This document shows, one piece after another, positions 31,178-62,634 of a DNA stretch of 64,000 bases (its first letter is position 1; each line of letters begins with the position of its first letter). The DNA comes from a virus: IMG/VR virus record IMGVR_UViG_3300028844_006278, one strand, 5' to 3'. Both the position numbers and the translations under genes were made by a program. The notes under the pieces were generated by a model that was not told the DNA's origin, did no database searches, and saw only the letters and a program-made list of their open reading frames with translations.

Positions 31178-31193
31178 TAGAATACGTATTCTA
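31178..31193. promoter_or_regulatory. Perfect palindrome TAGAATACGTATTCTA
   Basis: Symmetric variant of the 16-bp motif, spanning a stop codon and abutting the next ATG. Confidence 0.7.
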
Positions 31194-31604
31194 TTTCTTA
31201 TTTGATCGGGTAGACAGTTCTTGTGCGGCGACCGCTACTCCGGCCCCGGCTATAGTGGACAATAAATCTCGACCTATAGAGGGGTCTTTCTTTATCTTTC
31301 CCCATAGCGCAGACCCCAGTCCGCCTACGGCTGCCCCGCCTAGCGCGGCGGTTCCTGTATATCTTAGCTTTCGTGCCTGCTCCGCCTGTTCGCGGGTAGC
31401 GGCCCGTGTCTTCTCCAATGCCTTCAGCCCTTCTTGATGCTGCTTGGTCTGCAGATTGACGTCTCCTCGGCTTGCCAAGTGACTCCCTCCGACCCAGCCC
31501 GCGGTGTATAGCAGAAACTTGAGAACCGGAGCTATCGCCCACGCCTCTTTCTCTAGCATATAGCCTGTACGAGACCCGGCGCAGTATGAAGATGTCTTAT
31601 GCAT
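31191..31604 (-). CDS. Small Gly-zipper membrane protein (paralog 3 of 3)
   Basis: Start refined to ATG 31604 (MHKTSS); ALGGAAVGGLGSALWGKIKKDPSIGRDLL. Confidence 0.75.
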   Translation of the reverse strand: MHKTSSYCAGSRTGYMLEKEAWAIAPVLKFLLYTAGWVGGSHLASRGDVNLQTKQHQEGLKALEKTRAATREQAEQARKLRYTGTAALGGAAVGGLGSALWGKIKKDPSIGRDLLSTIAGAGVAVAAQELSTRSNKK

Positions 31605-32136
31605 TATTATTGTTCGCGCTGGCCGCATATCCTGCGCCGATCGCGCCTCCGCCTAGAGCAAAGATAAGATCTCTAGCTAGGTCGGGCTGTCCTGACATCT
31701 TTCCCCATGCCGCAGAACTAGCTCCAGCCAGGGCCGCGCCTCCTGCGCCGTACATCACAGGATCTTTCTCGTCGGGTTTAGCGGGAGTAGCTGCCGGGCT
31801 AGGTGCTGGCGTAGCTTCGGGCTTATCTTCGGGCTTATCTTCGGAGCTGTGGTTAGCTATCAACGCGCTGCCTCCAACTCCAGCTCCTCCCGCTAAACCC
31901 AAGGCAGCAAGTATCTTTACCGCCAATCCAACCTTATTTCTCGAGCTCCCAGTTGCCACGACTCGCCGCCTGAGGACACGGTCGCTGGCAGCGCCGCTCA
32001 ACGTGGGGGTCTGCATAGCCGGGACCCTCGTAGGTTGGGCGCGTGCCCCGCGAGCGTGCAGCTGGGCCGTGGCCAGGTTTAGCACCGGGGTAGTGGCGTT
32101 CTTGAAAAATATACTTAGATCGTTAGTGGGGTGCAT
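31597..32136 (-). CDS. Small Gly-zipper membrane protein (paralog 2 of 3)
   Basis: GAGGAALAGASSAAWGKMSGQPDLARDLI. Confidence 0.75.
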   Translation of the reverse strand: MHPTNDLSIFFKNATTPVLNLATAQLHARGARAQPTRVPAMQTPTLSGAASDRVLRRRVVATGSSRNKVGLAVKILAALGLAGGAGVGGSALIANHSSEDKPEDKPEATPAPSPAATPAKPDEKDPVMYGAGGAALAGASSAAWGKMSGQPDLARDLIFALGGGAIGAGYAASANNNNA

Positions 32137-32137
32137 T

Positions 32138-32617
32138 CTATGCGTTCTCCTGGTTAGACATCCCGACAGCTGCGCCTACAGCGGCTCCGGATAGTGTTGA
32201 AATTAGATCTCTCTGCAGATCGGGCTTGTCGGCTAACTTGCCGTATAGTACAGACACAAGGCCAGTGCCTAGGCCCCCGGTAGCGGCGTATGCGGCCGTA
32301 GAGGCGGCCTGATCCTCTGCCTCCTCTTTATCGGAGAAGTCTAGAGGTTCTTCCTCGGCCCTGTCTAAGGATGTGAAGTAGTTGTATCCCGCTCCCCCTG
32401 TGCCGAGCGCGCCGGTGCCGAGCACGCCGGTAGTAATGGCGATGCGTTTCGGGCTAAATGTCCACGTATTAGGGGCAGGTTGGGGCGGTTTTTGGACTAC
32501 TCTCCGTAGAATGTCAATGACGGGCTGTAAGTTCACCTTAGCGATCTTCTGGGACATGTCGGGTGAGGCGGATTTGGGGTATACGGACTGTAGTAGCTTC
32601 TCTGCTGGGGATAACAT
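32138..32617 (-). CDS. Small Gly-zipper membrane protein (paralog 1 of 3)
   Basis: ATGGLGTGLVSVLYGKLADKPDLQRDLI. Confidence 0.75.
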   Translation of the reverse strand: MLSPAEKLLQSVYPKSASPDMSQKIAKVNLQPVIDILRRVVQKPPQPAPNTWTFSPKRIAITTGVLGTGALGTGGAGYNYFTSLDRAEEEPLDFSDKEEAEDQAASTAAYAATGGLGTGLVSVLYGKLADKPDLQRDLISTLSGAAVGAAVGMSNQENA

Positions 32618-32639
32618 ATGATATGAGGGGGTTTGTGAG

Positions 32640-33530: not shown

Positions 33531-33566
33531 ACCTTATTGTCTCGTATAGGAGATAGAACTATCTCT

Positions 33567-34475: not shown

Positions 34476-34479
34476 GTCT

Positions 34480-35403: not shown

Positions 35404-35983
35404 CTTTTGTCGGGCTCCTAGGATCTGAGGGTGATAGTATCGGGGTGAAACAGGGTAGGTGGAATAAATCGTCCGGACGTACCCTATCATTACAAGAAAT
35501 ATCTACTGGGATTATAGTGCCGTAGCTGCGGAGTATGAGCTCCGTGCAGTATAGGACGTCCTCTGATTTAGCAGAGAAGAGTATATCGTACGGCATGCCT
35601 AGCTTATCTATGGCGAATGCGGCTGCCTTGTACTTAGTCTGCTGGGAGGCCTTTGGCCTGAGTATACAGGCGTGGTCTGTTCGTAGGAACTGGAGGATAT
35701 CTTCTTCGATTACTCCTTTACCCCCTATGGCATGTACTACCTTTGTCTTAGACACAGCTAGCCCTACGTGGCTGTAGTAGCCTGGAATTAGGAGCGAGGT
35801 TAGATACCGATCGTATCGACGGAGTACGACATCTCCTGGCTCAATCGTATCGGAGAATACTCGAAGCATTCTACCGCTAAGCTTATACGACGTAGAGGAG
35901 AAGGAGAGAAAGGGAGGAGCAGGCCATATCTGTATGTTGCCCAAGAACGAGACTATCTGCCTCTTAAATTTGCTCAACGACAT
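35384..35983 (-). CDS. Permuted papain-like NlpC/P60 (YiiX/YebB-like) amidase
   Basis: EPGDVVL...YSHVGL...VVHA...GMPYD...LYCTELI (His before Cys). Confidence 0.88.
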   Translation of the reverse strand: MSLSKFKRQIVSFLGNIQIWPAPPFLSFSSTSYKLSGRMLRVFSDTIEPGDVVLRRYDRYLTSLLIPGYYSHVGLAVSKTKVVHAIGGKGVIEEDILQFLRTDHACILRPKASQQTKYKAAAFAIDKLGMPYDILFSAKSEDVLYCTELILRSYGTIIPVDISCNDRVRPDDLFHLPCFTPILSPSDPRSPTKDEPRQS

Positions 35984-36013
35984 GGCCTCTCCTCTCTAAG
36001 TTGGTCCTACCCT

Positions 36014-36716: not shown

Positions 36717-36751
36717 AATTGACCGGGGTTGCACCGATAGGTTAGGTGATG

Positions 36752-37735: not shown

Positions 37736-37753
37736 AATGTCTATTCTCCTATG

Positions 37754-38445: not shown

Positions 38446-38931
38446 TTAGCCTGCCGAGAGGTTGTCAAAACACTGCTCGAATGCCCGATCTGACTCCCGC
38501 GCTTGCGCAGAGGCAGATGCCTGACCTGTCGGTACAGCGTGTCCCAATTTCGGCATCTCCGCGCCCGCACTATCCGAGCTGATGCGCTGATCCGCGAGCT
38601 TATCCAAAAAGGTAAGCAACGAATTGGCGGCATCGTCCTGAATAGCCTGCAAGGCCTGCTGGCGACTGCCTTCTTTGAGAAATCCTGCTTGGATAACCTT
38701 GTCGACGGTGCTTTCTATAGCGCCGTCCTCGAGGCTAGCCTGTTTGTCCTGTCCGTCTTCCGAGCACATACTGCACTTGTCGTAATCCTTGCCGCAGGCG
38801 CACTTGCCTTCAACGCTGGCGAGCTTCTCCTGGAGGCCGTGGATTTCGGCGGACTGGTCTTTGATAATGCTTTGCGTATCCGAGACATACGTGGCGATGT
38901 CGGCGGCCGCTTCTTTAGTGAGTGAGATCAT
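38446..38931 (-). CDS. Head assembly (scaffold-associated) protein
   Basis: Start refined to ATG 38931 (GGAGAGG SD); coiled coil; KEAA, KLAS, KQAS, KLAD motifs. Confidence 0.7.
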   Translation of the reverse strand: MISLTKEAAADIATYVSDTQSIIKDQSAEIHGLQEKLASVEGKCACGKDYDKCSMCSEDGQDKQASLEDGAIESTVDKVIQAGFLKEGSRQQALQAIQDDAANSLLTFLDKLADQRISSDSAGAEMPKLGHAVPTGQASASAQARESDRAFEQCFDNLSAG

Positions 38932-38961
38932 ACTGGTGTCCTCTCCGTTCTGGGGGATATT

Positions 38962-38977
38962 TAGCATACGTATGCTA
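38962..38977. promoter_or_regulatory. Perfect palindrome TAGCATACGTATGCTA
   Basis: Intergenic; identical to 20640-20655. Confidence 0.75.
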
Positions 38978-38984
38978 TGTCCCG

Positions 38985-39924: not shown

Positions 39925-42516
39925 TTAGGATTTGGCTTGGTTATGGACTACGACGCGGTGTGCGTACTTGTCTGCCCCGATGCCAGCCAGTAGTGAGATT
40001 TGATATTTCGCGTACTCATGCGACAAAACTCTTGACTCAGCACTCATTGTCGGCTCAACAAACATACTTGCCCGCTTGTGTTGCGGAGGACCGCCTTGGA
40101 TAACTACGAGGGTTATCCTACGACGAACCGGGTCATCTTCAATTGAGAAACTTGGTTTTATATCTTTAGCCAAGTCCTCCAACTCTCTCCAATAGGTAGG
40201 AGAAAGCGGAGTATAACTTGAATCCGATATAGCTCCGGACGCGGAGCACGCCGCATCGGGGGCTCCACATTCGGCTTCAGTAAAGGCGCCCCGCATAGCT
40301 GGGCACATATTATCGATGCCTGGGATCTGATCTTTGTCCTTCTTAGTGACTATCTGGGCAAAGGATTCCGGAGGCAGTAAAATCTTATGATTAGCAAGGC
40401 AGCCGAGTACATCTTCCAGGGGGAATTCCTTTAGACGCTTAATGATATCCTCGGGAAGTTCTTCGTCCGGGAAGGCTAAGGATAGATCTGACTCTTCTGG
40501 GGTGAGTCCTTCTGCTAAGATCTTCTTTTCGATCTCTGCGAGCTTAGACAGAGCATGGGCGTTATTCTTCTCGGATTCTGAGCCGACCTTGCTGATAAGG
40601 GATAGCGGAAGATACATGTTAGTAGCGTCATCTGCCGTGGGGTCTATCCCGCCGTTGCTGGCTACCTTGGCTAGTGCGAACGCTATCCTATCGGCCGGGA
40701 CACGGACTTTAGATATGTCGTGGAAATGGGGCTTATCATTGATCGCATAGACCTGGTGACCTTCTTTAGTGATCCCCAGCTTATTATACTTGAGGTGCTC
40801 GCAGTAGTTAGCGCGTGTCTTTGCCTCGTTGCCACATACCGAGCAGATATCGAAAGGAACGCCGCAGTTGTGGGTAGATATGCCGTTCGCCAAGTAGCTG
40901 TGGTGTTCCGATTCGACCTCTAAGTTAAAGACGTCTGTGCTTCTAACAGTCACGTCAATGCTAGATACTGGGACCAGCATATGATCTCCGACTATTCTCC
41001 TAGTGCGTCTAGTTTTGGCTGTTCCTTTAATCTCAGGAATCTTGGAGCTTAGGCCGTGTAGAGCCTCTGTAAGCACCCTGCTGCACCACAGCTGATATTC
41101 GTATGTGAAACCATCCTCTGTGTTAGCTGACGCGCTTGTGACGTGCTTGATATTGTTTATCGATACAGGATGTCCAAGCATAGGGAATAAAATCTGAAGC
41201 TGGATCGCCAGCTCTCTGCTGGAAGTGCTGAAGTAGGCATTGCCTCTAACGGAGTCAACATCTGATGAGGTATAGTACCCGCCGTCTCCCTCATGATATC
41301 CTCCAAGCAGTTCCCACAAAGCTCCGTCTACCCACTGGAATACGGAAGGATGGATGTACTTATTTTTTGCCCCTGATCCAAATAGCATTAGTAGTGTTTT
41401 AGCCAGGTCTGCATCGAACAAGTTGATTGAGAAGGCTTGGTCGCAGTCTCTTCTTTTTGACTCTACTGGAGGGTTTCTAGTCCCTATCTCCCGGCATATG
41501 TCGTTTATGCGCTCTCTTAGTGTGTCTGACGCATGACACGTAAAGCATATGCCTGAGGGGGTGCCGTCCTTATTGAACAGCACGTAGCCCTCAGCCAAGT
41601 AGTATCCGCAAAGCCGGGCAAAAGCTTCCGTTGCGTAAGCAGGATGAGCTACTGTTCTTGATAGGGGAGTCAGTAGGAGATCTCCCTCTAAGATTTCCGA
41701 CGCCTCTAGCCACTCAGCGCGGTCAATTACATCTCCATCCAAGATAAATCTGCCGCGCTTAAAGGCCTTTTCCCTACGTACCACCAAGAACGGGTGATTG
41801 GGGGTGCATTCTAGGGGAAGTCCTCCTGTGGGCTTTATGGTGTAGATCTCGATGTCATCATACGATAATGAGCGAATAGCATCTACTTTTGAGCTCTCAC
41901 CTGTGTGCAGTCGAACCTCGTCGCCTACGGCCACGTCTTGAATGGGAACTTGAGACATGTCGGACATTGTGACTAGTGTTCCGGATAGGAAGCAGCCCAT
42001 TGAAAATAAGACAGGAGTATCGGACGCCAGTTTATTCAGCGAGTCTGCCCATATATCGTTATCCAGCTTGACGACTAGTTCCCCTCTATGCATTGCCGGG
42101 TTATAGGCCTCTAGCTCTATACTTCCTAACGACTTAGCTCCTTTGCGGGAATTGTGGTGCTCCCTATACACTCCGCCGTATTTGCTGAACGTGCTGTGAT
42201 ACTGTGTAAGGCCGCCGTCGATCTTCTTCTGATATTCCCTGCCTGTGCGGTGATGCTCTGGGACGGTGATAGTCCCTTCCTTCTCGTTGAAGAAGTCCGC
42301 ATTGTTGTTAGGGCCGTAGAACTCTCCCGCACCTGTGGTAATGAGATGCACAAAGCTCTTACCCTTCTCCGGCTTGATGTCCATATGCATAACGTATTCC
42401 GACGCGGCGATCTTCGACATCTGCATCCTATCGACCCCTCGGCTGTGCACATCTATGAGATGGGCCGCCGGGTGGTCCTGGAACCAGCTTGTAGGGAGTA
42501 TGCTCTTAGGGATCAT
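39925..42516 (-). CDS. Prohead maturation protease (intein-containing)
   Basis: NNNADFF, YREHHN, LFSMG|intein|CGVPFDICSVCGN...CEHL, FHDISKV..PAD; canonical position before scaffold and MCP. Confidence 0.8.
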   Translation of the reverse strand: MIPKSILPTSWFQDHPAAHLIDVHSRGVDRMQMSKIAASEYVMHMDIKPEKGKSFVHLITTGAGEFYGPNNNADFFNEKEGTITVPEHHRTGREYQKKIDGGLTQYHSTFSKYGGVYREHHNSRKGAKSLGSIELEAYNPAMHRGELVVKLDNDIWADSLNKLASDTPVLFSMGCFLSGTLVTMSDMSQVPIQDVAVGDEVRLHTGESSKVDAIRSLSYDDIEIYTIKPTGGLPLECTPNHPFLVVRREKAFKRGRFILDGDVIDRAEWLEASEILEGDLLLTPLSRTVAHPAYATEAFARLCGYYLAEGYVLFNKDGTPSGICFTCHASDTLRERINDICREIGTRNPPVESKRRDCDQAFSINLFDADLAKTLLMLFGSGAKNKYIHPSVFQWVDGALWELLGGYHEGDGGYYTSSDVDSVRGNAYFSTSSRELAIQLQILFPMLGHPVSINNIKHVTSASANTEDGFTYEYQLWCSRVLTEALHGLSSKIPEIKGTAKTRRTRRIVGDHMLVPVSSIDVTVRSTDVFNLEVESEHHSYLANGISTHNCGVPFDICSVCGNEAKTRANYCEHLKYNKLGITKEGHQVYAINDKPHFHDISKVRVPADRIAFALAKVASNGGIDPTADDATNMYLPLSLISKVGSESEKNNAHALSKLAEIEKKILAEGLTPEESDLSLAFPDEELPEDIIKRLKEFPLEDVLGCLANHKILLPPESFAQIVTKKDKDQIPGIDNMCPAMRGAFTEAECGAPDAACSASGAISDSSYTPLSPTYWRELEDLAKDIKPSFSIEDDPVRRRITLVVIQGGPPQHKRASMFVEPTMSAESRVLSHEYAKYQISLLAGIGADKYAHRVVVHNQAKS
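40867..41994 (-). mobile_element. Intein with LAGLIDADG homing endonuclease (376 aa)
   Basis: CFLSGTLV start; LECTPNHPF block B; LCGYYLAEG and LLGGYHEGDG; VFNLEV...YLANGISTHN, +1 Cys. Confidence 0.95.
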
Positions 42517-42537: not shown

Positions 42538-44031
42538 CTAGATGATATTAGGGGGAGCGCCTGTATTATTAGCAGGGGCGGGGGCAGGCATTTTAGCTGG
42601 GGCTTTCTTGTCCGACGAGGTTAGCACATCTGCTGCTAATGATGCACTTGATTTTATCGCCCTACCGGCCGAGTCGGCAATATTCCTGACGCCTAGCGAG
42701 CCCTGTAGAGCAGTGGGTCTCTCTGGACGCTGCGCTTCTAGGCGTTCTTTCTGTGCTAATTCGTCTGACGCTTGATCTCTCTGTTGGTCGCGAAGACCTT
42801 TTGAGATATCGGCCTCGGTCTTCAGCTCGAAGGGATCCTTAAGGCCGGAGGACTGGATATTCTTGATCATAAGGCTGCTGAGGATCTCAGGCTTATTGTA
42901 CGCCTCCGGGACCGTGCTTACTGCTGCGTTGTACGCCTTGAGAAGCTCCCCGTGTCCGTACGCCTTAAGCTCTGGGTGATACAAGGACAGCAGGATGAAT
43001 GTCCTCTTGGCCTCCTGGCCCTTCATCTCGTTGAACTGGTCCGCGTCCAGCAGCTCTTCTTCAACAGTCTTTACATGCTTCCGGGCCGACATAGCGTCCA
43101 CGATCTTATCAGAAGACACTCCCGCGCCTGCGAGGAAGTTAGCCAGCGCATTAGCTGCGAAGTTAGATCCGAATTCTCCGCTGGCTGCCTCTTTATCAAC
43201 AAAGAGGGCCATCTCGGTCTCAGCCTTTGCCATGTTCTCGGCCGCGGTATACAGACGGTTGATGGTTACGTAAGGCTCTTGAGTCGGGAAGCATACGCAG
43301 TTAGCGGTCTTAGTCATCTCTGGGAAGTCTACTCGAGCCTTGTATTCGATGATGTCCAGCAGCCCTTTACCTGTAGTCGGGTACCCGTTAACAATATACT
43401 GAGCTACCTTGCGCAGTCCTCGCGGAGTTAGAGGAGCCAGGTGCTCGCACACCTCGTCAAGGGCTCGCTCGAAGGCCATTTTATGGAACTGGATCTTCAT
43501 GCGCAGTTCCTCCTTCAGCTTACTAGTAACGGCCGTCTTCTCCAGACAGGCCTGCTTTAGAAGTCGGTCGCAGGTACTTACCTCTTCTGCTGTGAGTTCC
43601 TTCTTGCTGGACGGCGCAGTCTGTAGGTGGTCGGAGGCCGTCTTGGCAAACATGTCTAGTGCAGCGGCTTCGTCCGCCTGCCGCAGCGCCTTGTGGGACT
43701 CTTCGAATAGAGCGTCCTTGGAAAAAGAAGGTAGGGCGAACACGGCTGCCGTCTTCTCGGTAGGCGTATAGATGGATCGTAAGATCTCTTGCGTATTGGC
43801 TAGTTCGAACGGATTGGCGCGCTCGTCCTGGGACGCCGCCTTAAACACGTGTACCGACTTCGATTTATTAAAGGCCTCCGCCATTCGGCTGATCTTCTCA
43901 GGGCCGTACTTCTTATCTGCGGCTACCTTAGCTATAGCGTCATTGGGGGACAGTCCACTATGAGTGAGTCCTATGGACTGCTCGATCGCACTAACTAATT
44001 CGTTCTCTTCCCTAGGCGAGAGCATTTTCAT
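42538..44031 (-). CDS. Putative head-internal/core protein, K-x-A rich
   Basis: Start refined to ATG 44031 (GGAG SD); about ten K-x-A motifs in the N-terminal 60%. Confidence 0.7.
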   Translation of the reverse strand: MKMLSPREENELVSAIEQSIGLTHSGLSPNDAIAKVAADKKYGPEKISRMAEAFNKSKSVHVFKAASQDERANPFELANTQEILRSIYTPTEKTAAVFALPSFSKDALFEESHKALRQADEAAALDMFAKTASDHLQTAPSSKKELTAEEVSTCDRLLKQACLEKTAVTSKLKEELRMKIQFHKMAFERALDEVCEHLAPLTPRGLRKVAQYIVNGYPTTGKGLLDIIEYKARVDFPEMTKTANCVCFPTQEPYVTINRLYTAAENMAKAETEMALFVDKEAASGEFGSNFAANALANFLAGAGVSSDKIVDAMSARKHVKTVEEELLDADQFNEMKGQEAKRTFILLSLYHPELKAYGHGELLKAYNAAVSTVPEAYNKPEILSSLMIKNIQSSGLKDPFELKTEADISKGLRDQQRDQASDELAQKERLEAQRPERPTALQGSLGVRNIADSAGRAIKSSASLAADVLTSSDKKAPAKMPAPAPANNTGAPPNII

Positions 44032-44089
44032 GTAACGTATTCTCCAAATGTGGAACATATGTACCTAATAATAGGAACATACACCTTCT

Positions 44090-49539: not shown

Positions 49540-49543
49540 AGAG

Positions 49544-50101
49544 TTATCTAAACTTATTATCGATGATGTTACCAAACACGGTGCCGAGGAACGGCACTGC
49601 CTGCCCTACCTCTATCCCCCTATCCTTCCAAGTCCTACCGTCTATCTTACCTGTAAGATGTTTTGCTATAGACATGAGCTTGGCCTTTCTAGTAGGGTCC
49701 TTTTCAGACGTGGCGGCTTCGGTAAGCACTTGGCGGCGAGCGATCAGCGCATTTCGGTGCTTTAGATTAGGTGCCCGAGTCCTTGCTTTTTTAGCATTGC
49801 CCTCGATATCTCCCTGTAGGATTCCTCTCTGGGAGTTGATAAAATCTATCTCTTCCTTAGAGATATCTGACGTGGGGTTGCCTAGAACGTAGTCTTTATA
49901 TTGACCTAAGCTGGATATACCCTTCCGTCTTCCCTGCATGAGCTCCCCTGCTGCAAGACCAACGCCTGCTCCGACGCCACCTCCAATCAGATACTTGTTG
50001 AAGGTCCTATCGGACTCGGGCACGAGCTTGCGGGTTAGCGCGACTCCGATGACAGCGCCGAGCGGGGTCGTAACTAGTGATGGGTTGATTGGATCCTTCA
50101 T
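49544..50101 (-). CDS. Gly-zipper membrane protein
   Basis: PLGAVIGVAL; LIGGGVGAGVGLAAG. Confidence 0.7.
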   Translation of the reverse strand: MKDPINPSLVTTPLGAVIGVALTRKLVPESDRTFNKYLIGGGVGAGVGLAAGELMQGRRKGISSLGQYKDYVLGNPTSDISKEEIDFINSQRGILQGDIEGNAKKARTRAPNLKHRNALIARRQVLTEAATSEKDPTRKAKLMSIAKHLTGKIDGRTWKDRGIEVGQAVPFLGTVFGNIIDNKFR

Positions 50102-52719: not shown

Positions 52720-55700
52720 CTATTCCAGTATGGTGATGGGGTCGTCTATTGCTATCTTACCTGACCTATACGCCTTTCTTGCATCGGCCACGGTATTGAA
52801 TACAGCGGCTGTCTTATCTGCAGGAGCCTTGGTAGCTAGATATAGCCCCTGCAGATATTCATTGGAAAGCTTATACGATGCCTGTCCTGATCGGGCGGAG
52901 ATTAGATTGCGGTCCGGCATCATGCGGTCGACCACTTGGGATACCGCCTCGTCCGAGACAGGAACGGTGAATGACGCTGTGTCTCCGTCATAGTCCATGG
53001 CGAATGGCCCTACAATGGCCGGAGGCACTTGGACGGTAGATCCTTTTACGAGTACCGGCCAGAATCCCATGACACTGTACTTGTGTAAGGTAGGCGCCCG
53101 ATTTAAGATGACAGGGCGCTTGGTGATAACAGACTGCAACGACTTGTACGCTAGGGGTGAGTGATCTTTGACCGCTGTTGCAGCCTCTGTGGCAGGGACG
53201 CCCTGTCGCACAAGGTCTCGGATAACAAACGGCTCGTATAGATTCCAAGCAAGCTTCTCTGGGATGCCCGCTTGGTTGAGTAGAAGGGACGGATTAGGTG
53301 CGACTACGCCTAGTCCCGACATATCGATATTAGTCCCTAGAACTCGGCGCTGAATGAAGCCTGTCTTCGGACTTCCTTTTCCGAATATGTGCGAAAGGAT
53401 GCCCTTTACGTTCTTCTGTACGAGCTGATCCTTCTTCGGATCGGATACACCGATGAGAGCCTTGTAGCTATCCCATAGATCTCTTCGAGCATCGTTACGC
53501 ATATCTGCCGGTAGTCCCTCTGTCTCGTTATAGTCGGAGATAGACTCCACTAGAGACTTATACAGGTAGTTCGGGTCGGCCACCATCGTCATCCCTCCCT
53601 GTGCTGATATAGGACGGAACCGAGGCGGAAGTACCGGAACTCGGGTCATCATGAAGTCCGATGGCTTCACCTTGTTAGTTTCGAAAGCATGTAGGAATCG
53701 GAACTTTTTTACAGCATCGTCGCGCTTAGATCTGATGCCGTGCTTTATCTCGTGCAGCGCCTTGGCCTTTTCTGCCTTGACGTCGATTCTACCTAGCTTG
53801 TCGGCTAGAGCGTCCTCTCCGGAGGCCACTAAATCCTCCATCTCGGTTCTTTTTAGGCCCAATATACGCCGTATAGGGTCTACCATGATAGGGTTAGGCA
53901 TGGCCGTAGGGAGGTCAATGTATGCCCATCTGTCGCCGTTAGCCGAGCTTCCGGTAGCGTCGGGGTCAAATAGGCCTCCTGGGATGGGCTTAAGACCTTT
54001 TGCTGTATATGTATCACCGGTAGAGATCTTTCTATTTCCGGTAAGGTCTTTTGCCTGTTGGTTGGTCATAGAGAATATGTCGTCGGAGAACGCGCCTTCC
54101 GACAGATGTACTCCGCCTGCTCTGAGGAGGTCCTTAAACTTCTCGTAGACTAGCGGAGTCTTCGGCATGGTAGGGGTCTGTCCCAGCTTCAGCTGACGCC
54201 AGAACATATCGTTCTTCTGCCCCTTGATGAGCTTCATGTCCTTGAGGACCTCTGTCGCCCCGTGTGCTAAAAGAGCCTCTTGGTACATCTTGCCTAGGTG
54301 TTTAGCGCCTGTCTTGCCTCCCTTGGCCGGCTGGTCCTCTGCTGTGTACTTAGCCTGTGATCTGGACTTGCCTTTACCTTCGGACGTATGCTGCATCTTG
54401 TAGAAGTACGTCACTCCGGTAAATATCTGGGGGATCTTCTTCCCGGTTCTCGGATCTACTAGGTCCTCTCTATCGGATAGTCTATTCTTCTGGAGCTCGC
54501 TATGGGTGAACTCTATCATGTCTTCGTCTGAGAATCCCGGTAAGACGTAGGGCTTGCCTGTCTTCTCTGCGATCTTGCCTAGCTGGGCCTCTAGCTTCTG
54601 TGCCGGGTTAGTTCTGCTGACTACTCCCAGGGGAGACAGTATGACGTCCATCTTTCTGCCCTTAGGGTCCGTCGGCATCTCAGAGTCCTTGATCACCTTA
54701 GAGATTACGCCCTTGCCGCCGTGCCGCATGGCCAGTTTATCTCCTACGCCCATGGGTATGTTCGTACGGACATTGATGTAGTACTGCTCTTTGCCTTCGG
54801 TCGCGTCTGTGACTACTCCGGGGTGTCTCTTCTCCCACAGCACTGCCTTGTTGGAGCGCATGCGGCGGCCAAGGGATCCACCGGCATGCGGATCCTGCTC
54901 GGACATCGCCAGAGCAAGCGGATCTCCATATCGTACGACCGATCCGGGCTTTATCATCCCCGTCGTTTCGTCGATCTTAGCGAGCTGCTCTTTATTGAAG
55001 GCGGCGGGGAAATTAGCTCTGAACTTATCCTTAGAGACAGACAGGTCCTTTTCCTTCTTGAACTTAGCATGATACATATGCTCTGACGTGAGCTTCTTAG
55101 CTGCCGTCTCGGATATAACAATGGCATCCTCGAACACCAGTCCGTCATAGTTCCAGTACGCTACGCGGAGATTAGTCCCGAGGGCCGCTACTCCCTTATC
55201 GCTGGTGAAGTTACTGGCTGCGAGCATGTCGCCCTTCTTCACCTTGTCTCCGGCCTTTACTAGGGCCTTGTTGCGGATGTACGTGGATCGGGCATACGGA
55301 AAGTTCTCGTACAGATCCACGGATCCCTCGGATCCGTCCGCATAGGTTAGGTCTACTCTATTCTTGCGGACGGCCTTAACTGTGGCGTCCCTAGAGGCGC
55401 GCACTGCTCCGAGATGGCCGCCTATGCGTCTCTCCATGCTGGTGCCGCTTCCGGGATCGGTAGTTCTTACTAGCGGAGCCTCTCTGCTCACCAGAGGAAG
55501 TGCCTGGGGCCCAAATTTCGAGCCCATTAATAAACGCATTCCCTTATCTCCGGATTTCAGAGGAACCAGGTTAGCCCCATCGCTAAACATATCATCGTTG
55601 TTCGGTACGACGTAATCGATGTCTTCACGCTTTACCCATGCCATGCCCTTATTAGGCACCATCGCAATTACGTAGGGGTCTGTGTTCTTCTGGAATCCCG

Positions 55701-57168
55701 GCCATGTCAGGTTCTTTCTAGCGGCCTCTCGGATCCCTACCCACTTCTCCTTACCTGTACGGGCATCTATGAATTTAGAGTACAGCTGACGGTCGGGGCC
55801 TCTACGTACGTTGCGCGACATCTTCATATCTACGCCGATCTTTAAGCTTTCCGGAGCACGAACTGGATCAATGTAATTCAGGTACGTGGGCTGTACGCCT
55901 CGGGCCTCTTTAGGGACAACATCTACGCTAGTCATCGCGCCCTCGCCTAGGCGTAAGATCCGCTGGTTCTGGTCGTACATGTCTAGCGGATTGATCTCTT
56001 CGATGGGCTGAGCCATCCCTGAGCTGACAAACAGATGCTGTACGTGTTTATCGAGAGGGGCGGTAGGTACTGCAGATATGTCTCCGTTCTTCTTTGAGAC
56101 TTTCCATAGGATCTGTCGCAGCACTCCGTTCTGGTCGTTGGCTACCTTGTCACTAAGGAAGTCCGATATATCCCAGACGTCCTGGAACTCTAACGAATCC
56201 CTACTGTCGGAGTCTTCGTCTCCTTTGGCAACCCGCAGGATCTTCCCGGTAGCCGACATAATAGCCTCTGGAGAAGCGTTGGTGTGATCCTCTCCGAGAG
56301 TAACCCTAGTGACCCGGGGGTTGAGTCCGATTTTACCGAACTCTTCAGTAAGTCCTTCCCGGACCGTGTCGTTGTATAGGGAGGACACTGTCGACCCTGT
56401 CTTCTGCTGTAAGAGCTGTGCAACTACAGGCCCTGCCTTGGCGTCCAGTGCTATGGGCGCTGCCGGTGCATCTGGCTCTGGGGCAACTGCGAATCCTTTT
56501 AGGAAGTTGACTGCGTAGGGAGACTTCTCTAAGGTCCTGTTCTTCTCCGCGATGTCTTTTCCCCACTGCGCCTCGATATCTTCGTGCTGCTTACCCATGG
56601 CCCGGAGGATAGGATATAGCGGAAGCTTACGGTTCTTATACTTCATGTAGAAGAAAGACGTCGACGGCTCCATGTATATACGGAAAGAGGGCCCGGACCG
56701 TGGAATAGCGTTGAACTGGGCCTCTATGTTCGAGTCATCCGTTACGCGCGTGTATATTCCTGAGTTGAGACGAAGCTGCTTCGCTACAGTGTATTCCGTG
56801 CCGTTACGTACGTACGTGCCTCTGTCTGTAAGGTACGGCACGTTTATGATAGTCTTCCGGCCAGTTCTGCCTAGCGACTTGCCTGTCTCCTTATCGATAA
56901 CCTCCCACCGACCTGTCACCTTATCGCTAAGTGTCCGGCCCTCTAGGATCGCGTCCTTCTGCTGGGACAGCGAGTATCTACCTTTAGGCTTAGCGTACGC
57001 GACGTCTGTGGCCTTTAGCATGTATCTGTCGTTTTCGGAAAACGCTGATTGCTCTACTGAAGACAGGACCTTCTTTCGAAGATCGGTTCGTACTGAATCG
57101 TAGTCCGTATAATTTAGGAGACCGGTACCATCTGAGAAGTCCGGAGCAGGAGAAGGCATCTCAGGCAT
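52720..57168 (-). CDS. rpoBC: RNA polymerase beta subunit fused to the N-terminal half of beta'
   Basis: Beta: GTYVRNGTEY, DPVRAPES, FEDAIVISE, GDKLAMRHGGKGVIS, SPLGVVSR. Beta': GGLFD, VPVLPPRFRP, LNRAPTLH, AMDYDGD. Confidence 0.96.
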   Translation of the reverse strand: MPEMPSPAPDFSDGTGLLNYTDYDSVRTDLRKKVLSSVEQSAFSENDRYMLKATDVAYAKPKGRYSLSQQKDAILEGRTLSDKVTGRWEVIDKETGKSLGRTGRKTIINVPYLTDRGTYVRNGTEYTVAKQLRLNSGIYTRVTDDSNIEAQFNAIPRSGPSFRIYMEPSTSFFYMKYKNRKLPLYPILRAMGKQHEDIEAQWGKDIAEKNRTLEKSPYAVNFLKGFAVAPEPDAPAAPIALDAKAGPVVAQLLQQKTGSTVSSLYNDTVREGLTEEFGKIGLNPRVTRVTLGEDHTNASPEAIMSATGKILRVAKGDEDSDSRDSLEFQDVWDISDFLSDKVANDQNGVLRQILWKVSKKNGDISAVPTAPLDKHVQHLFVSSGMAQPIEEINPLDMYDQNQRILRLGEGAMTSVDVVPKEARGVQPTYLNYIDPVRAPESLKIGVDMKMSRNVRRGPDRQLYSKFIDARTGKEKWVGIREAARKNLTWPGFQKNTDPYVIAMVPNKGMAWVKREDIDYVVPNNDDMFSDGANLVPLKSGDKGMRLLMGSKFGPQALPLVSREAPLVRTTDPGSGTSMERRIGGHLGAVRASRDATVKAVRKNRVDLTYADGSEGSVDLYENFPYARSTYIRNKALVKAGDKVKKGDMLAASNFTSDKGVAALGTNLRVAYWNYDGLVFEDAIVISETAAKKLTSEHMYHAKFKKEKDLSVSKDKFRANFPAAFNKEQLAKIDETTGMIKPGSVVRYGDPLALAMSEQDPHAGGSLGRRMRSNKAVLWEKRHPGVVTDATEGKEQYYINVRTNIPMGVGDKLAMRHGGKGVISKVIKDSEMPTDPKGRKMDVILSPLGVVSRTNPAQKLEAQLGKIAEKTGKPYVLPGFSDEDMIEFTHSELQKNRLSDREDLVDPRTGKKIPQIFTGVTYFYKMQHTSEGKGKSRSQAKYTAEDQPAKGGKTGAKHLGKMYQEALLAHGATEVLKDMKLIKGQKNDMFWRQLKLGQTPTMPKTPLVYEKFKDLLRAGGVHLSEGAFSDDIFSMTNQQAKDLTGNRKISTGDTYTAKGLKPIPGGLFDPDATGSSANGDRWAYIDLPTAMPNPIMVDPIRRILGLKRTEMEDLVASGEDALADKLGRIDVKAEKAKALHEIKHGIRSKRDDAVKKFRFLHAFETNKVKPSDFMMTRVPVLPPRFRPISAQGGMTMVADPNYLYKSLVESISDYNETEGLPADMRNDARRDLWDSYKALIGVSDPKKDQLVQKNVKGILSHIFGKGSPKTGFIQRRVLGTNIDMSGLGVVAPNPSLLLNQAGIPEKLAWNLYEPFVIRDLVRQGVPATEAATAVKDHSPLAYKSLQSVITKRPVILNRAPTLHKYSVMGFWPVLVKGSTVQVPPAIVGPFAMDYDGDTASFTVPVSDEAVSQVVDRMMPDRNLISARSGQASYKLSNEYLQGLYLATKAPADKTAAVFNTVADARKAYRSGKIAIDDPITILE

Positions 57169-58365: not shown

Positions 58366-58926
58366 CTACGTCGTATCGGGGCTATCGTCGTCCGGAATCT
58401 GCTGGAGGGCCTGCATCAGACCGTCCATAGCGTCCTGGGCTGTATGGTATCGGCTACCGCTATCGTCCAGCTCCGGGGGAGAGAATTTATCCGAGGGGGT
58501 CCGGGTATCTGTCTCGGGCATTACTTTCTTCTTAGGCTCTTTTGCGGTACCGGCCGTGGCGTTCTCTACTGCCTTAGGCGGGGCGAAGTAGTGCTCCATC
58601 CATCGCATAAGTACGCGCCAGCTTTTGATGTCGTTGTCGTACACCTTCTCCTCGAACGAGATGGTGGCCAGGCTGTCGCAGACTTTCTGTCCTACAGCCC
58701 GGTACTGCTTCATGTCTTCCTCATTACTGAGGTCGAACTGTGCGCAGCAGGCGTTGCTCTTTAGCTGAGGCTTTAGATCGTCAGCATCGTCTTCCTTAAA
58801 TGGGTGCGGTTGACCTATGTATGGCAGCCCGCCGTACTCGTATCCCTTTCCATAGTCCCGCAAAGCCCCGTAGGACTTTAGTGGGGACATAGCGCTGAAG
58901 GGATTAAATGCGGAGCGCTCGTGCAT
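58366..58926 (-). CDS. Hypothetical protein
   Basis: 186 aa; FDLSNEEDMKQY...WRVLMRWME. Confidence 0.7.
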   Translation of the reverse strand: MHERSAFNPFSAMSPLKSYGALRDYGKGYEYGGLPYIGQPHPFKEDDADDLKPQLKSNACCAQFDLSNEEDMKQYRAVGQKVCDSLATISFEEKVYDNDIKSWRVLMRWMEHYFAPPKAVENATAGTAKEPKKKVMPETDTRTPSDKFSPPELDDSGSRYHTAQDAMDGLMQALQQIPDDDSPDTT

Positions 58927-59269
58927 TGCTGCCTCCTTTCTTGGTCTCTTCGTCTATCTCTGCCTGTACCTTACGGCGAGCCACGTCCGTCTCCAGCTTA
59001 CGGAGATCGGAAAGCTCGATGGCTTTCTGGACTGTCTTGAAGTCCAGCTTTGACGGGGAGGTTATTCTAGAATGTATGTGGCCTCCGAAGCCGCCTGCAA
59101 TTGCCGGGAGGACCAGCATATAGGGTAGGAGCTCTCCGGCAGAGGTTATCCCGAGTTCCAGTGCGTTGCCTACGACGTCTGCGAGTCCTGCTTTCTTCTC
59201 TATAGGGCTAGTCTGCGGCTCTATGTTGGCGTAGCCTCCGGAGAAGCCTAAGTATGTATCTGCGTTCAT
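58904..59269 (-). CDS. Small membrane protein with leader motif
   Basis: YLGFSGGY...EKKAG; LLPYMLVLPAIAGGFGG. Confidence 0.7.
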   Translation of the reverse strand: MNADTYLGFSGGYANIEPQTSPIEKKAGLADVVGNALELGITSAGELLPYMLVLPAIAGGFGGHIHSRITSPSKLDFKTVQKAIELSDLRKLETDVARRKVQAEIDEETKKGGSNARALRI

Positions 59270-59700
59270 TATTCCCCAAACTCCGTAAATATTCCTGTAC
59301 TGATAAGTGCGCCGGCTATCGCTCCTGCTGCGCTTAAGCGCTTAGAAACTATAGTCGGTAATGAAAATAGTGAGGATGCGGCACGGCCGAAAAGATACCC
59401 TGCTCCTCCGCCAGCGCCAGCTGTGACCGCGCTTTGCATTAAGGATCCCCCGCTTGTAAAGCCGAACTTCTTCTTCTCAGCTTTCTCGAATATCGCAGAA
59501 GCTATATCCTTCTGGGTGATGGATAGGTATGGATCTCCTTTGATGATCTGTAGGCTCTCTGAGATCGGAACGCTCTTAGATTTAAGAGATATGTCCTCGT
59601 TCATCATGTACGAGGCATCCTTCTCCAGCAAGTGCATCCACGCCAGATCCCCGGCAGATGCGTATCCCTTCTTATATCCCGCAGACTTGCTCATCGTCAT
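59269..59700 (-). CDS. Small Gly-zipper protein with leader motif
   Basis: KSAGYKKGY...EKDAS; AGAGGGAGYLFG; AAGAIAGALI. Confidence 0.7.
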   Translation of the reverse strand: MTMSKSAGYKKGYASAGDLAWMHLLEKDASYMMNEDISLKSKSVPISESLQIIKGDPYLSITQKDIASAIFEKAEKKKFGFTSGGSLMQSAVTAGAGGGAGYLFGRAASSLFSLPTIVSKRLSAAGAIAGALISTGIFTEFGE

Positions 59701-60191
59701 CGCCTCATATCTTGGTAGGTTCGGCTGACGTCGTAAGCGACAGGAGCGTTTGCTGCTGTTCGTTTGTGGGCGTTCCGCTTCCTATCAAAGACTTCTTTGT
59801 ACTTCGTCTTATAGGACGGGTCTACCAAGCTCTGCAGGGCTCGACCTGTGCCGGCGGATGTATCGATGTGTTTGAGTATCGGATACGCCGCTCCTGCTGC
59901 ACCGCCGAGAGTAGCGGATATGCGGCTAATCGTCTGCACTGTGCCGTCTTCTTCTAGCTTACGTAGGGCTTCGGCCCTCTTATCCGGAGGTACTCGGATG
60001 AGTAGCGTTTTAACTAGTCCGTCCGTAAGCTTCTTTGCAGCGAAGTGTCCGCCAACTGCTCCGAGCGATCCCAGGATGGCCGATTCTGCCCAAGGTGCCT
60101 TGTCCGTAAAAGACTTATATCCTCGCATCGCGCCCTGGGCTGCCGATGACGCTGTGTCTATCCAGTTGGTTTTTGCAGGTGTTGTACTCAT
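59697..60191 (-). CDS. Small Gly-zipper protein
   Basis: AILGSLGAVGG; LGGAAGAAY. Confidence 0.7.
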   Translation of the reverse strand: MSTTPAKTNWIDTASSAAQGAMRGYKSFTDKAPWAESAILGSLGAVGGHFAAKKLTDGLVKTLLIRVPPDKRAEALRKLEEDGTVQTISRISATLGGAAGAAYPILKHIDTSAGTGRALQSLVDPSYKTKYKEVFDRKRNAHKRTAANAPVAYDVSRTYQDMRR

Positions 60192-60214
60192 AGTGATTCT
60201 CTCCTACAAAGTAG

Positions 60215-61114
60215 TTACGTAAGTCTAGTCGGATTCAGATTCTGCCCCAGCTGTCGGTACATGGACTCCGATAGGTAGCTGGAAGGCTGTCTAGGCGTCA
60301 CCGCTTTAGGCGCCTGCTGAGGTGCTGCAGATTTAGTCTTAGACATCAGCAGCATCGCCAATGGAGTCAGTGCCGCGGCACCTGCTACCCATGGAGCGGC
60401 CTTCTGCACAGTTCCCGATACTTTAGATCGGACGTGCTGTAGGAGCTCCTTCTTCGCCCCCTCTCGGTAAGGAGAATGTTTGACATAGGTAGCAAGATGG
60501 TGCATCTTGTCGTAGTCTTTCGCCTTCCGCGCGTCGGCGAAAGCTGTCCTAAAGGCTGTCTCCTTAGCACCCTCCCCTATGGGCAGCCTATTGCCCAAGT
60601 ACGCGGCTAATTGGCCAACCTCGTCTTGCTTGGCATGCGGGTATCTAGGTTGGATGTAGTTTTTGAATACGTGCTTGGCGTCCGCAGCATTGGGATTATA
60701 TCTAATGTATTTTCCTCCTCCTGCCTCGCTATTATAGATTCTAGCCGGAGGAACGGCGTATCTGCCTCCACTATTACCTACGGGCCCGTACGGGGAATAC
60801 CTGTAGGTCGGAGTAGTGGCAGGGCGATCCTTTACCGTAGGGGCCGTAGCGTATTCCAACATAGATGAAATAGATGGCCGGCCTTTTTCTTGGAGGAGGC
60901 CCGGGGGTGGTCCCGTGGGGCTCTGAAAGATAGGAGCCATTGCCTTGACCTCCGGAGAGAACTTGGGGGCGAACTTCTCTATGTTCTCGTCCGTTAGCAC
61001 CTCATTGTTGAACCCGCTTACTATACTCCCCATTATACCTTCCCCCGCTTCCTTAGAAAAAGAAGCAGAGTATCCGGCTCTAACAGCTATATTGTAGTTG
61101 TGTCTATCTGTCAC
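60215..61114 (-). CDS. Hypothetical protein with leader motif and C-terminal hydrophobic helix
   Basis: GTG start; AVRAGYSASFSKEAG; PWVAGAAALTPLAMLLM. Confidence 0.7.
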   Translation of the reverse strand: MTDRHNYNIAVRAGYSASFSKEAGEGIMGSIVSGFNNEVLTDENIEKFAPKFSPEVKAMAPIFQSPTGPPPGLLQEKGRPSISSMLEYATAPTVKDRPATTPTYRYSPYGPVGNSGGRYAVPPARIYNSEAGGGKYIRYNPNAADAKHVFKNYIQPRYPHAKQDEVGQLAAYLGNRLPIGEGAKETAFRTAFADARKAKDYDKMHHLATYVKHSPYREGAKKELLQHVRSKVSGTVQKAAPWVAGAAALTPLAMLLMSKTKSAAPQQAPKAVTPRQPSSYLSESMYRQLGQNLNPTRLT

Positions 61115-61152
61115 GAATATCCTATCTGGGTTAGGGGAGAGTAATTTTTTTT

Positions 61153-62634
61153 TTACTCCCCTACAATGCTTGAGAGGAAGCCCTTGGCCATGTTACTGAG
61201 TTGTCTAGATTTGCTGTCTTGCTGTTTCTGTATCTCTTCCATTTTTTTGCGGCGGGCGGTGTTTAGCTCGTTTTTTGGCGCGTTCGCGTTGTACTCCTCT
61301 TTATCCTTAGCTGTAGGAGTTGGGTGCATTACTTTAGGCGAGGGAGGGGCGTTATACTCCTGTTTGGCCTGACTGACCATAGCTCTGGCCGCCGCGACTG
61401 GGTTGTAACTACTGGCGTTGTACCCGGCGTCTAGTATCCTGTATAGTGCGGAGGACTGGTTAGGAGCCGGAGTAGGAGCCGGAGTAGTAGCGGGAGGCGC
61501 TGCCGGATGCGGCGGTGCTGGAGCCGGAGGGGCTGGCGCGGGAGTGGTAGCTGGAGGGGCTGGAGCCGGAGGGGCTGGCGCGGGAGTGGTAGCTGGAGGG
61601 GCTGGTGCAGGAGCTGGCTCTGGTGCGGGGGGAGGCGTTGGAGCCGGGGGCTCTGGTGCAGGAGGAGCAGCGGGAGCAGCAGCAGCGGGAGCAGCAGCAG
61701 GAGTATGAACAGGGACCATGTTTTTGTACCTGTTCTCTAAGTCCGTTAGCCTATCCTGGGCTTTAGCAATCTGCGCACCGTAGTCCGTGCCGGATGATTC
61801 GAGCAGTCCGGCGGGCAGGGCTGTTCCGGCTTCTCTGAGACTATCTAGTGATTTTAGGTGACCGATATTCGCCTGTTCTTTTGCTACAGCTGCACGGTTA
61901 CGGGCGATATTATCTACATTCGCGGTGCTTAGCCCGGGGGCAGTTATATTGAGGAGTTCTTTCTGCTCCGCCAAGGTTCTTTTGAATACATCCTTAGTGT
62001 AGGCGGTATGCGCAGCCGGTAACTGATTCTTCATAAGATCAGTCTTCTGCTCACTGGACAAGGCGGATTGATTATTAGCTAGCTCTAGGGCTGTACTGTA
62101 CACGGCGGCCGGGGCTGTACTGATTGCCGCTATAGCCTCCGCATTCTTGTCCGGATCCTTCGCGAGAGCTTCTCGTACCTTGTCTAGATTGCGAGTAGCG
62201 ATCGAGTCCTGTACGAACTTAACAGCTTCCGTTTTACCTACGCCGAAGAAGTCCATAACCGCGAAGGCAAGTGTACCGATAAGTGTGCCGGCCAGTGCGC
62301 CTTTACCGCCTCCTAAGAGACCTCCGATGACTCCTCCGACGCCGGCTCCGCCCAGGGCCCATCCTATCTTCTGCGCAGTCTTATCTGACGATACCTGATA
62401 CATGGTGTCGGACATGATAAGCGAGCTCGCCCATTGCCGAATCTGAGACAGCTTTTCCGGAGTATTATAGCCTGCTTTGTATGCCGCTCGGGTGAATTCG
62501 TCTCCCTCGACTTGAGGCACCATGTCTGCAGGTACCGGTGCTGGAGGCGGCGGGACCGCCCCTGTATTTGCCCATTTCTGGAAGAATTCCTCGGCCTCCT
62601 CGGCCGATAGTCTAGTATGAGGTAATTTGATCAT
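61153..62634 (-). CDS. Gly-zipper protein with Pro/Ala-rich linker
   Basis: KTAQ then GWALGGAGVGGVIGGLLGGGKGALAGTLIG; PAPPATTPAP repeats. Confidence 0.75.
   Translation of the reverse strand: MIKLPHTRLSAEEAEEFFQKWANTGAVPPPPAPVPADMVPQVEGDEFTRAAYKAGYNTPEKLSQIRQWASSLIMSDTMYQVSSDKTAQKIGWALGGAGVGGVIGGLLGGGKGALAGTLIGTLAFAVMDFFGVGKTEAVKFVQDSIATRNLDKVREALAKDPDKNAEAIAAISTAPAAVYSTALELANNQSALSSEQKTDLMKNQLPAAHTAYTKDVFKRTLAEQKELLNITAPGLSTANVDNIARNRAAVAKEQANIGHLKSLDSLREAGTALPAGLLESSGTDYGAQIAKAQDRLTDLENRYKNMVPVHTPAAAPAAAAPAAPPAPEPPAPTPPPAPEPAPAPAPPATTPAPAPPAPAPPATTPAPAPPAPAPPHPAAPPATTPAPTPAPNQSSALYRILDAGYNASSYNPVAAARAMVSQAKQEYNAPPSPKVMHPTPTAKDKEEYNANAPKNELNTARRKKMEEIQKQQDSKSRQLSNMAKGFLSSIVGE
61517..61605. 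repeat. Exact 42-bp tandem duplication in a Pro/Ala linker
   Basis: gctggagccggaggggctggcgcgggagtggtagctggaggg x2 plus a partial copy. Confidence 0.85.

Follow-up and report, generated by a model that had tools for sequence, protein, structure and literature searches.

In a 64,000-nucleotide stretch of DNA from an uncultured phage (the window; part of the 164.9-kb IMG/VR virus record IMGVR_UViG_3300028844_006278, which has direct terminal repeats), a short pattern of residues recurs in the proteins of the head-assembly genes. We think it likely that the phage's own assemblin-fold serine protease, which is encoded in the same gene block as an intein-containing precursor of 863 amino acids (aa), recognises this pattern, hydrophobic(P5)-x-Lys(P3)-x-Ala(P1)-Ser/Ala(P1'), and cuts within it. 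An earlier reading of the window made from the letters alone (the sequence-only reading) had noted Lys-x-Ala (K-x-A) near N-termini and at domain boundaries in the genes between 31191 and 62634, and had proposed a protease with lysine at P3 and alanine at P1; that register is the most likely one for a cleavage motif, and every K-x-A instance it quoted was found in the gene it named. We infer catalysis, the cutting of the motif bonds and the position of the cut after alanine from the motif itself, its conservation, the fold of the protease and the placement of the sites relative to order and disorder.

Expected counts were obtained from within-protein shuffles, which preserve the composition of each protein. 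Between 31191 and 62634, bare K-x-A occurs 96 times versus 73.9 expected (z 2.8; rank 5 of 400 gapped pairs), an excess that is not convincing on its own after multiple testing. K-x-A followed by alanine or serine (K-x-A-[AS]) occurs 35 times versus 14.1, and K-x-A before any other residue is no commoner than expected (61 versus 59); when composition is controlled, then, the enrichment belongs to the extended motif and not to the bare one. It is concentrated in five adjacent genes, 38446-47214 (22 versus 3.7, z ~10), where it is unchanged by shuffling within 25-aa blocks, and genes 31191-36640 of the span first described show no excess. The genome-wide count is 71 versus 37.8. In the five genes the reverse motif, [AS]A.K, occurs 3 times versus 3.6, and of six permuted motifs five do not depart from expectation; the other, [AS]K.A, which shares residues with the motif, is slightly in excess (9 versus 3.7). 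The shuffles, together with reverse and permuted motifs near expectation, argue that the enrichment goes beyond composition. Arginine does not stand in for lysine. A hydrophobic residue two positions before the lysine belongs to the pattern as well: [MLIF].K.A occurs 40 times in the span versus 13.5, and moving the hydrophobic residue by one position relative to K.A leaves no enrichment. The proximity to N-termini also held up, since 12 of the 29 head-region proteins carry [MLIFV].K.A inside residues 6-50, versus 2.2 expected.

The same pattern is found in distant relatives. A search with the C-terminal extein of the protease as query gave 54 homologues of ~480 aa, intein-free and unannotated. 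Six syntenic metagenomic loci were compared, together with the regions from the cultured Salmonella phage Arash and from phage G; the seven closest loci were taken with all 133 of their open reading frames, unselected. Over these 133 frames K-x-A-[AS] occurs 163 times versus 42.7 (z 18.6) and the reverse motif 43 times versus 43; [MLIF].K.A[AS] occurs 103 times versus 8.2, with shifted registers near expectation. The Arash locus has 25 sites versus 7.3 expected, the enrichment lying in genes neighbouring the protease. Each time the excess falls in the same orthologues (those of the 734-aa and 506-aa proteins, the protease, the scaffold-like proteins and proteins of ~150 aa), and it does not extend to the mature capsid protein, the 306-aa protein or the RNA polymerase subunit. 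Even where orthologues are only 15-50% identical, those of Arash among them, the sites keep to the same columns of the alignment. A profile search of 1.84 billion representatives found 4,249 protease-family clusters at 50% identity; in 91 protease representatives that are full-length, intein-free and at most 50% identical to one another, K-x-A-[AS] occurs 388 times versus 48.8, and the reverse motif is depleted (25 versus 49). The logo of 530 sites has M, L, I or F enriched 2-4x at P5, lysine at P3, a free P2, alanine at P1 and a preference for Gln or Glu one residue before the lysine. The full logo, hydrophobic(P5)-x-K(P3)-x-A(P1)-[S/A](P1'), thus alternates informative with uninformative positions, and such alternation around a free P2 would be expected of an extended strand docked in a protease groove.

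Another explanation would be that the recurrence simply follows from a helical composition rich in Lys and Ala, or is due to chance. The z of 2.8 for bare K-x-A over the whole span would fit it, as would the contrast between tail and head proteins, for which lysine content accounts. It does not fit the extended motif, which stands at z 10-19 against global and local shuffles with its reverse at expectation, nor the conservation of sites by column in distant orthologues. The shuffle controls, the register shifts and the counts in the 91 representatives refute this explanation, and we give it practically no weight.

In the 863-aa precursor an N-terminal propeptide precedes an assemblin-fold domain, which an intein interrupts, and the C-terminal region is helical and scaffold-like. 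The gene for this precursor stands in the head-assembly block, directly upstream of the scaffold and major capsid protein (MCP) genes. The intein has the hallmarks of its class (a Hint domain with an N-terminal Cys, a C-terminal His-Asn, a +1 Cys and a LAGLIDADG insert) and is inserted at ...FSMG/C..., three residues after the invariant Ser172. The spliced protease of the sequence-only reading can be given exact limits: global alignment to P0002, an intein-free homologue 76% identical to the window's C-terminal extein, yields exteins 1-174 and 551-863, with junctions G-C-F and H-N-C-G (that is, G/C and HN/C). Many other members of the protease family bear inteins, mostly at the insertion site used here (profile position ~173-174, beside the predicted catalytic serine) and otherwise at ~68 or ~103-120. 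Some members, of 1,000-1,270 aa, seem to contain two. The family is a hot spot for inteins.

An AlphaFold2 (AF2) model of P0002, with a mean predicted local distance difference test score (pLDDT) of 81 and ~90 in the protease domain, is disordered over residues 1-37 and then forms a confidently predicted beta-rich domain (38-243). A disordered linker (244-259) leads to a region of helices (260-430), and disorder returns briefly at 430-438 before a terminal helical hairpin. When the model was aligned exhaustively to 48,161 PDB chains, the best matches of domain 45-246 were the varicella-zoster virus (VZV) protease, at Z 9.8 (root mean square deviation 2.9, 116 residues aligned), and T4 gp21, at Z 9.2 (129 aligned); the next unrelated fold reached Z 6.8, and the proteases of human cytomegalovirus (HCMV) and Kaposi's sarcoma-associated herpesvirus (KSHV) 6.4 and 5.9. 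Assemblin-fold capsid-maturation serine proteases make up MEROPS clan SH, with families S21 (herpesviruses), S77 (T4 gp21), S78 (HK97) and S80 (phiKZ). His120 and Ser172 do not vary among 36 homologues or the 91 representatives; they lie 52 residues apart, compared with 55 for His85 and Ser140 of T4 gp21. Asp74, Arg144, Cys185 and Cys196 are likewise invariant across the family, and His57 is conserved in 84 of the 91. A PHROGs search of the 863-aa protein gave only intein-type matches and no protease family, a profile search of PDB sequences gave no match, and a shape search of the ESM Atlas returned only unnamed viral clusters. The identification of this protein as a capsid-maturation protease, made at first from sequence, is nonetheless supported by the modelled fold and the gene context. 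Since no sequence-level link to any described protease family was found, we conclude that it probably represents a new sequence family of assemblin-fold capsid proteases, with catalysis presumed.

Directly after the predicted catalytic serine there is a nearly invariant Cys-x-x-Cys...Cys-x-His cluster (C182, C185, C196 and H198 in intein-free numbering), which is probably a zinc site. We know of no counterpart in T4 gp21 or the herpesvirus proteases. A third catalytic histidine of T4 gp21 at residue 161 was considered and rejected, residue 161 being Phe.

One argument that the motif is a cleavage site comes from the protease itself, whose domain is bracketed by three conserved sites (Table 1). 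K-x-A in the K35 column is present in 35 of 36 homologues, in 82 of the 91 representatives and in phage G gp19, and the low-pLDDT segment 1-37 of the P0002 model ends at the alanine of this first site. In the column of K617 (K241 without the intein) the figures are 34 of 36 and 84 of 91, and the disordered linker 244-259 starts right after the alanine, so that both low-confidence segments begin or end at an A/[AS] bond. The equivalent of K814 is found at ~430-440 (~433) in most homologues and in 61 of the 91 representatives; the poorly conserved, low-pLDDT stretch 430-438 surrounds K433. This tail site shifts by a few residues within a stretch that is not conserved and yet is nearly always present, which is how a short linear motif behaves, unlike structural residues. 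Two further columns are conserved, K162 (69 of the 91, in a modelled helix, 157-164) and position 283 in intein-free numbering (72 of the 91). K162 may have an internal regulatory role, or a purely structural one. The placement of motifs at domain boundaries thus holds for the protease, and for K132 of the 734-aa protein discussed below, but not for several other conserved sites, which lie in modelled helices. Taken together, the sites bracketing the protease's own domain, the fixed columns, the N-terminal leaders and the alternating pattern make a protease cleavage site the most likely identity of the motif.

The same protease might use the same motif with the scissile bond after the lysine, as hydrophobic(P3)-x-Lys(P1)/x-Ala-Ser, a charge-reversed copy of the (L/I)(P3)-x-Glu(P1) of T4. 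The hydrophobic residue stands exactly two positions before the lysine, which is where P3 lies relative to P1 in T4 and the herpesviruses, and the HK97 protease cuts its own capsid protein after a lysine. Cleavage there would, however, make P1' free while P2' is an invariant alanine and P3' serine or alanine, which is unusual, and the modelled boundaries between order and disorder lie at the Ala/Ser bond (1-37/38 and 243/244), not after the lysine. Small residues on either side of the cut, moreover, match the assemblin precedent (PMC4498786). Because of the free P1', the invariant P2' and boundaries that follow the alanine, we consider a cut after lysine unlikely.

Cleavage after alanine would make substrates of several neighbouring proteins. 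The putative scaffold has seven K-x-A versus 3.3 expected, with sites at KEA/S 26, KAA/S 134 and KMA/A 155; the N-terminal one lies at residue 21-27 in seven of eight orthologues (locus L003 has K-E-A-E), and in relatives L002-L007 there is also a site ~10-31 residues from the C-terminus. The 173-aa protein has five K-x-A versus 1.5, and its sites, KEA/A 18, KLA/S 48 and KQA/S 75, are conserved by alignment column in the orthologues. In the MCP, K-x-A occupies residue 26-29 (the same column, plus or minus one) in eight of nine orthologues, just before the conserved body; P1' is Q, N, S, K, A or G, and the site is absent only in phage G. The mature MCP is poor in K-x-A (4 versus 8.5 expected over eight orthologues). 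The phage G capsid chain of 6WKK, which starts at Met1 of gp27, is uninformative on processing. The 506-aa protein, with twelve K-x-A versus 6.0 and five K-x-A-[AS] versus 1.3, has its sites at the same columns in orthologues of 16-45% identity (Arash gp220 has 7 sites) and is, from sequence, a candidate for a heavily processed core or scaffold-type protein.

The 734-aa protein has eleven K-x-A, the best conserved being LG-KEA/S at K132 and LI-KHA/A at K561. In its family of 43 sequences K.A[AS] occurs 195 times versus 25 and the reverse motif 30 times versus 25, K132 and K561 being at least 90% conserved; in a model of the protein, a 32-residue disordered linker (104-135) that follows the N-terminal domain ends at K132-E-A-S. 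Its Arash homologue, gp218, is an abundant virion protein. Fold searches with the model were uninformative. Two identities proposed for this protein were discarded: it is not the portal, because the homologue of the Arash portal gp204 starts at 62631, and weak chymotrypsin-like rows from Foldseek, which might have made it a second, Lys-specific protease, were rejected because no Ser or His is conserved there.

Each of the four small genes at 58904-62634 has one N-terminal site (IE-KKA/G 25, LE-KDA/S 27, FS-KEA/G 21 and FQ-KWA/N 20). On sequence they are candidate propeptide-bearing head proteins, and each alone could be chance; all four are counted among the 12 of 29 head-region proteins with an N-terminal site. 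In several leaders the site is preceded by a small-aromatic-x-x-G-Y element. Beyond the window, two larger proteins are candidates for packaged cargo: one of 426 aa, with five K.A[AS] and one K-x-A-G that have a hydrophobic P5, and one of 572 aa, in which a weak match to 'internal virion protein with endolysin domain' starts right after LD-KEA/A. Small proteins with a single site at residue 20-23 are also encoded there.

Assembly might then proceed as follows: (i) the 863-aa precursor would splice out its intein; (ii) the spliced protease would be built into the procapsid; (iii) it would cut itself after Ala37, after Ala619, releasing the protease domain, and after Ala816, losing the C-terminal tail; (iv) it would strip the capsid protein and the scaffold, as well as several of the small head proteins, of leaders 20-35 residues long; and (v) the scaffold-like proteins (173, 307, 506 and 734 aa) would be fragmented, so that the head empties and then fills with DNA.

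A number of observations weigh against this reading. The fold match is moderate, Z ~9-10 where the best chance value is usually 7-8; a Foldseek search of the protease model against the PDB gave no match, no Pfam family with an E value of up to 1 matched either extein or any of the 36 homologues, and hhalign gave a match to T4 gp21 a probability of 0.07%. The CMV protease has its second histidine ~25 residues after the serine, and His198 here follows Ser172 by 26; His198 is replaced by Cys or Asp in 7 of the 91 representatives and sits within the Cys182/Cys185/Cys196 cluster, for which reasons it looks like a metal ligand and not a member of the triad. Among the conserved sites, K162 and K283 (intein-free numbering) of the protease lie in modelled helices or inside the fold, and K176 and K523 of the 734-aa protein lie in modelled helices; all four are possibly inaccessible, and since several sites are placed in this way, not every copy need be cleaved. 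The window's scaffold is without the C-terminal site of its relatives. Finally, coverage of the predicted substrates in the Arash virion proteome is high, at 84-100% (PMC10585845).

Some of these observations would suit a linear motif with no role in proteolysis, one that serves for docking or capsid targeting (to the shell interior or the helical domain of the protease) or as a site of lysine modification. Conserved copies in helices or folded domains, leaders that pair the motif with a second conserved element (small-aromatic-x-x-G-Y) and substrates that are highly covered in Arash virions are all easier to understand on that basis. It does not explain why there are many copies per protein in scaffold and core types that other phages degrade, why the motif brackets the protease domain in disordered linkers, or why sites lie 20-35 residues from N-termini, like known propeptide sites, and no modifying enzyme or binding partner is indicated. 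We judge it quite improbable, less so than composition but more so than a cut after lysine.

The sequence-only reading went further and held that the packaged proteome could be read from bare K-x-A; this was overstated, the count being near chance outside ~8-12 proteins, and the extended motif plus its position are needed for such a reading. A doubtful elaboration is a two-part 'address and cut' code, in which the leader (often small-aromatic-x-x-Gly-Tyr) would take cargo into the procapsid and the hydrophobic-x-Lys-x-Ala/Ser site would release it. Were this true, the ejected or internal proteome of the lineage (thousands of 50%-identity protein clusters), including the proteins that accompany a virion-packaged multisubunit RNA polymerase, would be readable from sequence, and Ala/Ser cutting would be an ancestral trait of the protease fold, not a herpesvirus peculiarity.

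Table 1. Features referred to in the text. Coordinates are window positions except where prefixed G000:C1; a slash marks the predicted scissile bond.
Feature	Coordinates	Strand	Remarks
Major capsid protein (MCP), 327 aa	36752..37735	-	phrog_2522 major head protein, 1e-6; HK97-type, weakly recognisable
MCP N-terminal site YVQ-KTA/Q (QKTAQ, residues 25-29; K26)	37649-37660		
173-aa head-assembly protein	38446..38967	-	
Putative scaffold, 307 aa	38985..39908	-	acidic C-terminus; role proposed on composition and place in the gene order
Prohead protease precursor, 863 aa	39925..42516	-	intein-containing
Protease tail site, QH-KRA/S (K814)	40066..40077	-	predicted loss of the final 47 residues, as at a maturation (M) site
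Protease release-type site, LA-KVA/S (K617; K241 intein-free)	40657..40668	-	end of protease domain
Cys/His cluster region	40770-40866		protease residues ~551-582
Intein with LAGLIDADG homing endonuclease, residues 175-550	40867..41994	-	Pfam Intein_splicing 7e-10, LAGLIDADG_3, Hint
Protease internal site, LN-KLA/S (K162)	42022..42033	-	inside fold, 10 residues before Ser172
Protease site 1, MS-KIA/A (K35)	42403..42414	-	predicted loss of 37-aa N-terminal propeptide
506-aa protein	42538..44058	-	directly upstream of protease
734-aa protein	45010..47214	-	fold not recognised
734-aa protein site LG-KEA/S (K132)	46810-46821		
RNA polymerase beta'C chain	47269..49575	-	Pfam RNA_pol_Rpb1_5
RNA polymerase beta-beta'N fusion	52720..57168		within head-gene block
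Four small genes	58904..62634	-	just downstream of portal gene
Portal	from 62631 onward		homologue of Arash gp204
426-aa protein	G000:C1:44387-45667		~9-10 kb before window; six K.A[AS] versus 0.4 expected
572-aa protein	G000:C1:141854-143572		leader SAYVQGYLD-KEA/A, site at residue 214

The real genes of the window are all on the minus strand. The order of its head genes (734 aa, 306, 506, protease, scaffold-like, 173, 219, MCP) is syntenic in the six metagenomic relatives and Arash. Neither a Megablast search of phage genomes with the head block nor a pattern scan of viral contigs using the window's MCP gave a match; the MCP itself has a weak match to the phage G MCP 6wkk. A plus-strand open frame of 557 aa, at 36746-38419, is exactly antisense to the MCP and 219-aa genes and without a family match; it is most likely spurious.

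The proteins in which the motif is missing or scarce deserve comment. In the RNA polymerase beta'C chain, which carries a Hint domain, K-x-A-[AS] occurs 0 times versus 4.1 over eight orthologues (p ~0.02). Homologues of the polymerase subunits are the most abundant proteins of Arash virions (PMC10585845), which suggests that the polymerase is packaged. The deficit is a weak hint that a packaged polymerase that must stay intact avoids the motif, and the K-x-A deficit of the mature capsid protein can be taken likewise. The peptide K-T-A-A-V-F stands at residue 1452 of the beta-beta'N chain, 30 residues before its C-terminus (D-KTAAVF-N), and again at residue 102 of the 506-aa protein (E-KTAAVF-A); it may be there by chance, or it may be a processing or docking element common to both. 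The scarcity of K-x-A in the tail proteins, to which the sequence-only reading had pointed as a contrast, proved to be an effect of composition: there are 21 copies versus 25 expected, because these proteins are lysine-poor. The tail and appendage proteins (window 1-31176) have 0.4-3% Lys, a K/(K+R) often of ~0.2 and 8-11% Asp; head-interior and RNA polymerase proteins have 6-9% Lys. A lysine-poor, acidic composition of the tail may reflect selection on the exposed parts of the virion.

Several cultured phages encode homologues of the protease, at 28-32% identity and E values of 1e-10 to 1e-31: Salmonella phage Arash (gp222), Vibrio phages D181, D148 and D69, and Bacillus phage G (gp19). Arash gp222 has been annotated solely as a 'structural protein', its processing not analysed (PMC10585845); on the modelled fold that annotation should probably be corrected to protease. 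Phage G gp19, already called a head maturation protease (PMC12484599), is shorter, at 300 aa, and keeps the N-terminal and post-domain sites, although the N-terminal K-x-A is absent from the phage G MCP. A literature search found no publication describing a K-x-A processing motif, and a broader one gave only Glu-specific systems. In a lineage whose proteins are almost wholly 'hypothetical', the motif predicts, in a form open to testing, where propeptides and scaffold fragments lie and which proteins are candidates for packaging, and Arash, a cultured member, makes the prediction directly testable.

To our knowledge, every characterised T4-type prohead protease cuts after Glu. The window's protease shares with T4 gp21 (PDB 5jbl; L/I-x-E) its fold and the gene order protease, scaffold, MCP, and it shares with T4 gp21 and with phiKZ gp175 and SPN3US gp245 (A/S/G-x-E) the reuse of one 'P3-x-P1' motif in the MCP, scaffold, core and internal proteins and N-terminal leaders (PMC10052503, PMC5694885). 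It differs from them in its predicted P1 residue, alanine and not glutamate. Over the span, [SAG].E is not enriched (144 versus 157 expected), and [LI].E, at 104 versus 80 (1.3x), is not concentrated in the five assembly genes (34 versus 27). Unlike the 212-aa T4 gp21, proteases of the window's type are ~480 aa long, with a long helical C-terminal part, and no profile-level similarity joins the two.

T4 and phiKZ were the systems with which the sequence-only reading compared the motif. The comparison missed the closest analogy, the herpesvirus assemblins, with (V/L/I)-x-A/S at their release and maturation sites. These proteases (HSV and PrV pUL26, from herpes simplex and pseudorabies viruses, and HCMV UL80a; MEROPS S21) are the best structural match to the window's family, and they cut after Ala before Ser or Thr, both at the release site and at the maturation site, which lies 25-37 residues from the C-terminus (PMC4498786). 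Like the herpesvirus precursor, the window's protein has its protease domain on the N-terminal side of a helical part resembling a scaffold, with one conserved site immediately behind that domain and another ~50 residues from the C-terminus; the predicted cut, Ala-Ser/Ala, resembles YLQA/T and VQA/S in PrV (PMC4498786), and the herpesvirus V/L-x-A has the same 'P3-x-P1' form. Unlike its herpesvirus counterparts, it shows no sequence similarity to them, has an additional 37-residue N-terminal propeptide and a Cys/His cluster after the catalytic serine, and would take lysine at P3 and a hydrophobic residue at P5 where the herpesviruses have hydrophobic P3 and P4. The third histidine of the herpesvirus Ser-His-His triad is not recognisable in its family, its scaffold is a separate gene and not a nested one, and the window copy holds an intein. 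What appears to be new is a processing code for prohead proteases whose specificity resembles that of the herpesviruses, in a protease family that is large and unannotated. If this is correct, an Ala-cutting sister family with lysine at P3, 4,249 clusters in size, would widen the known specificities of the fold, and the capsid maturation of phages and herpesviruses would be linked by substrate recognition, not by fold alone.

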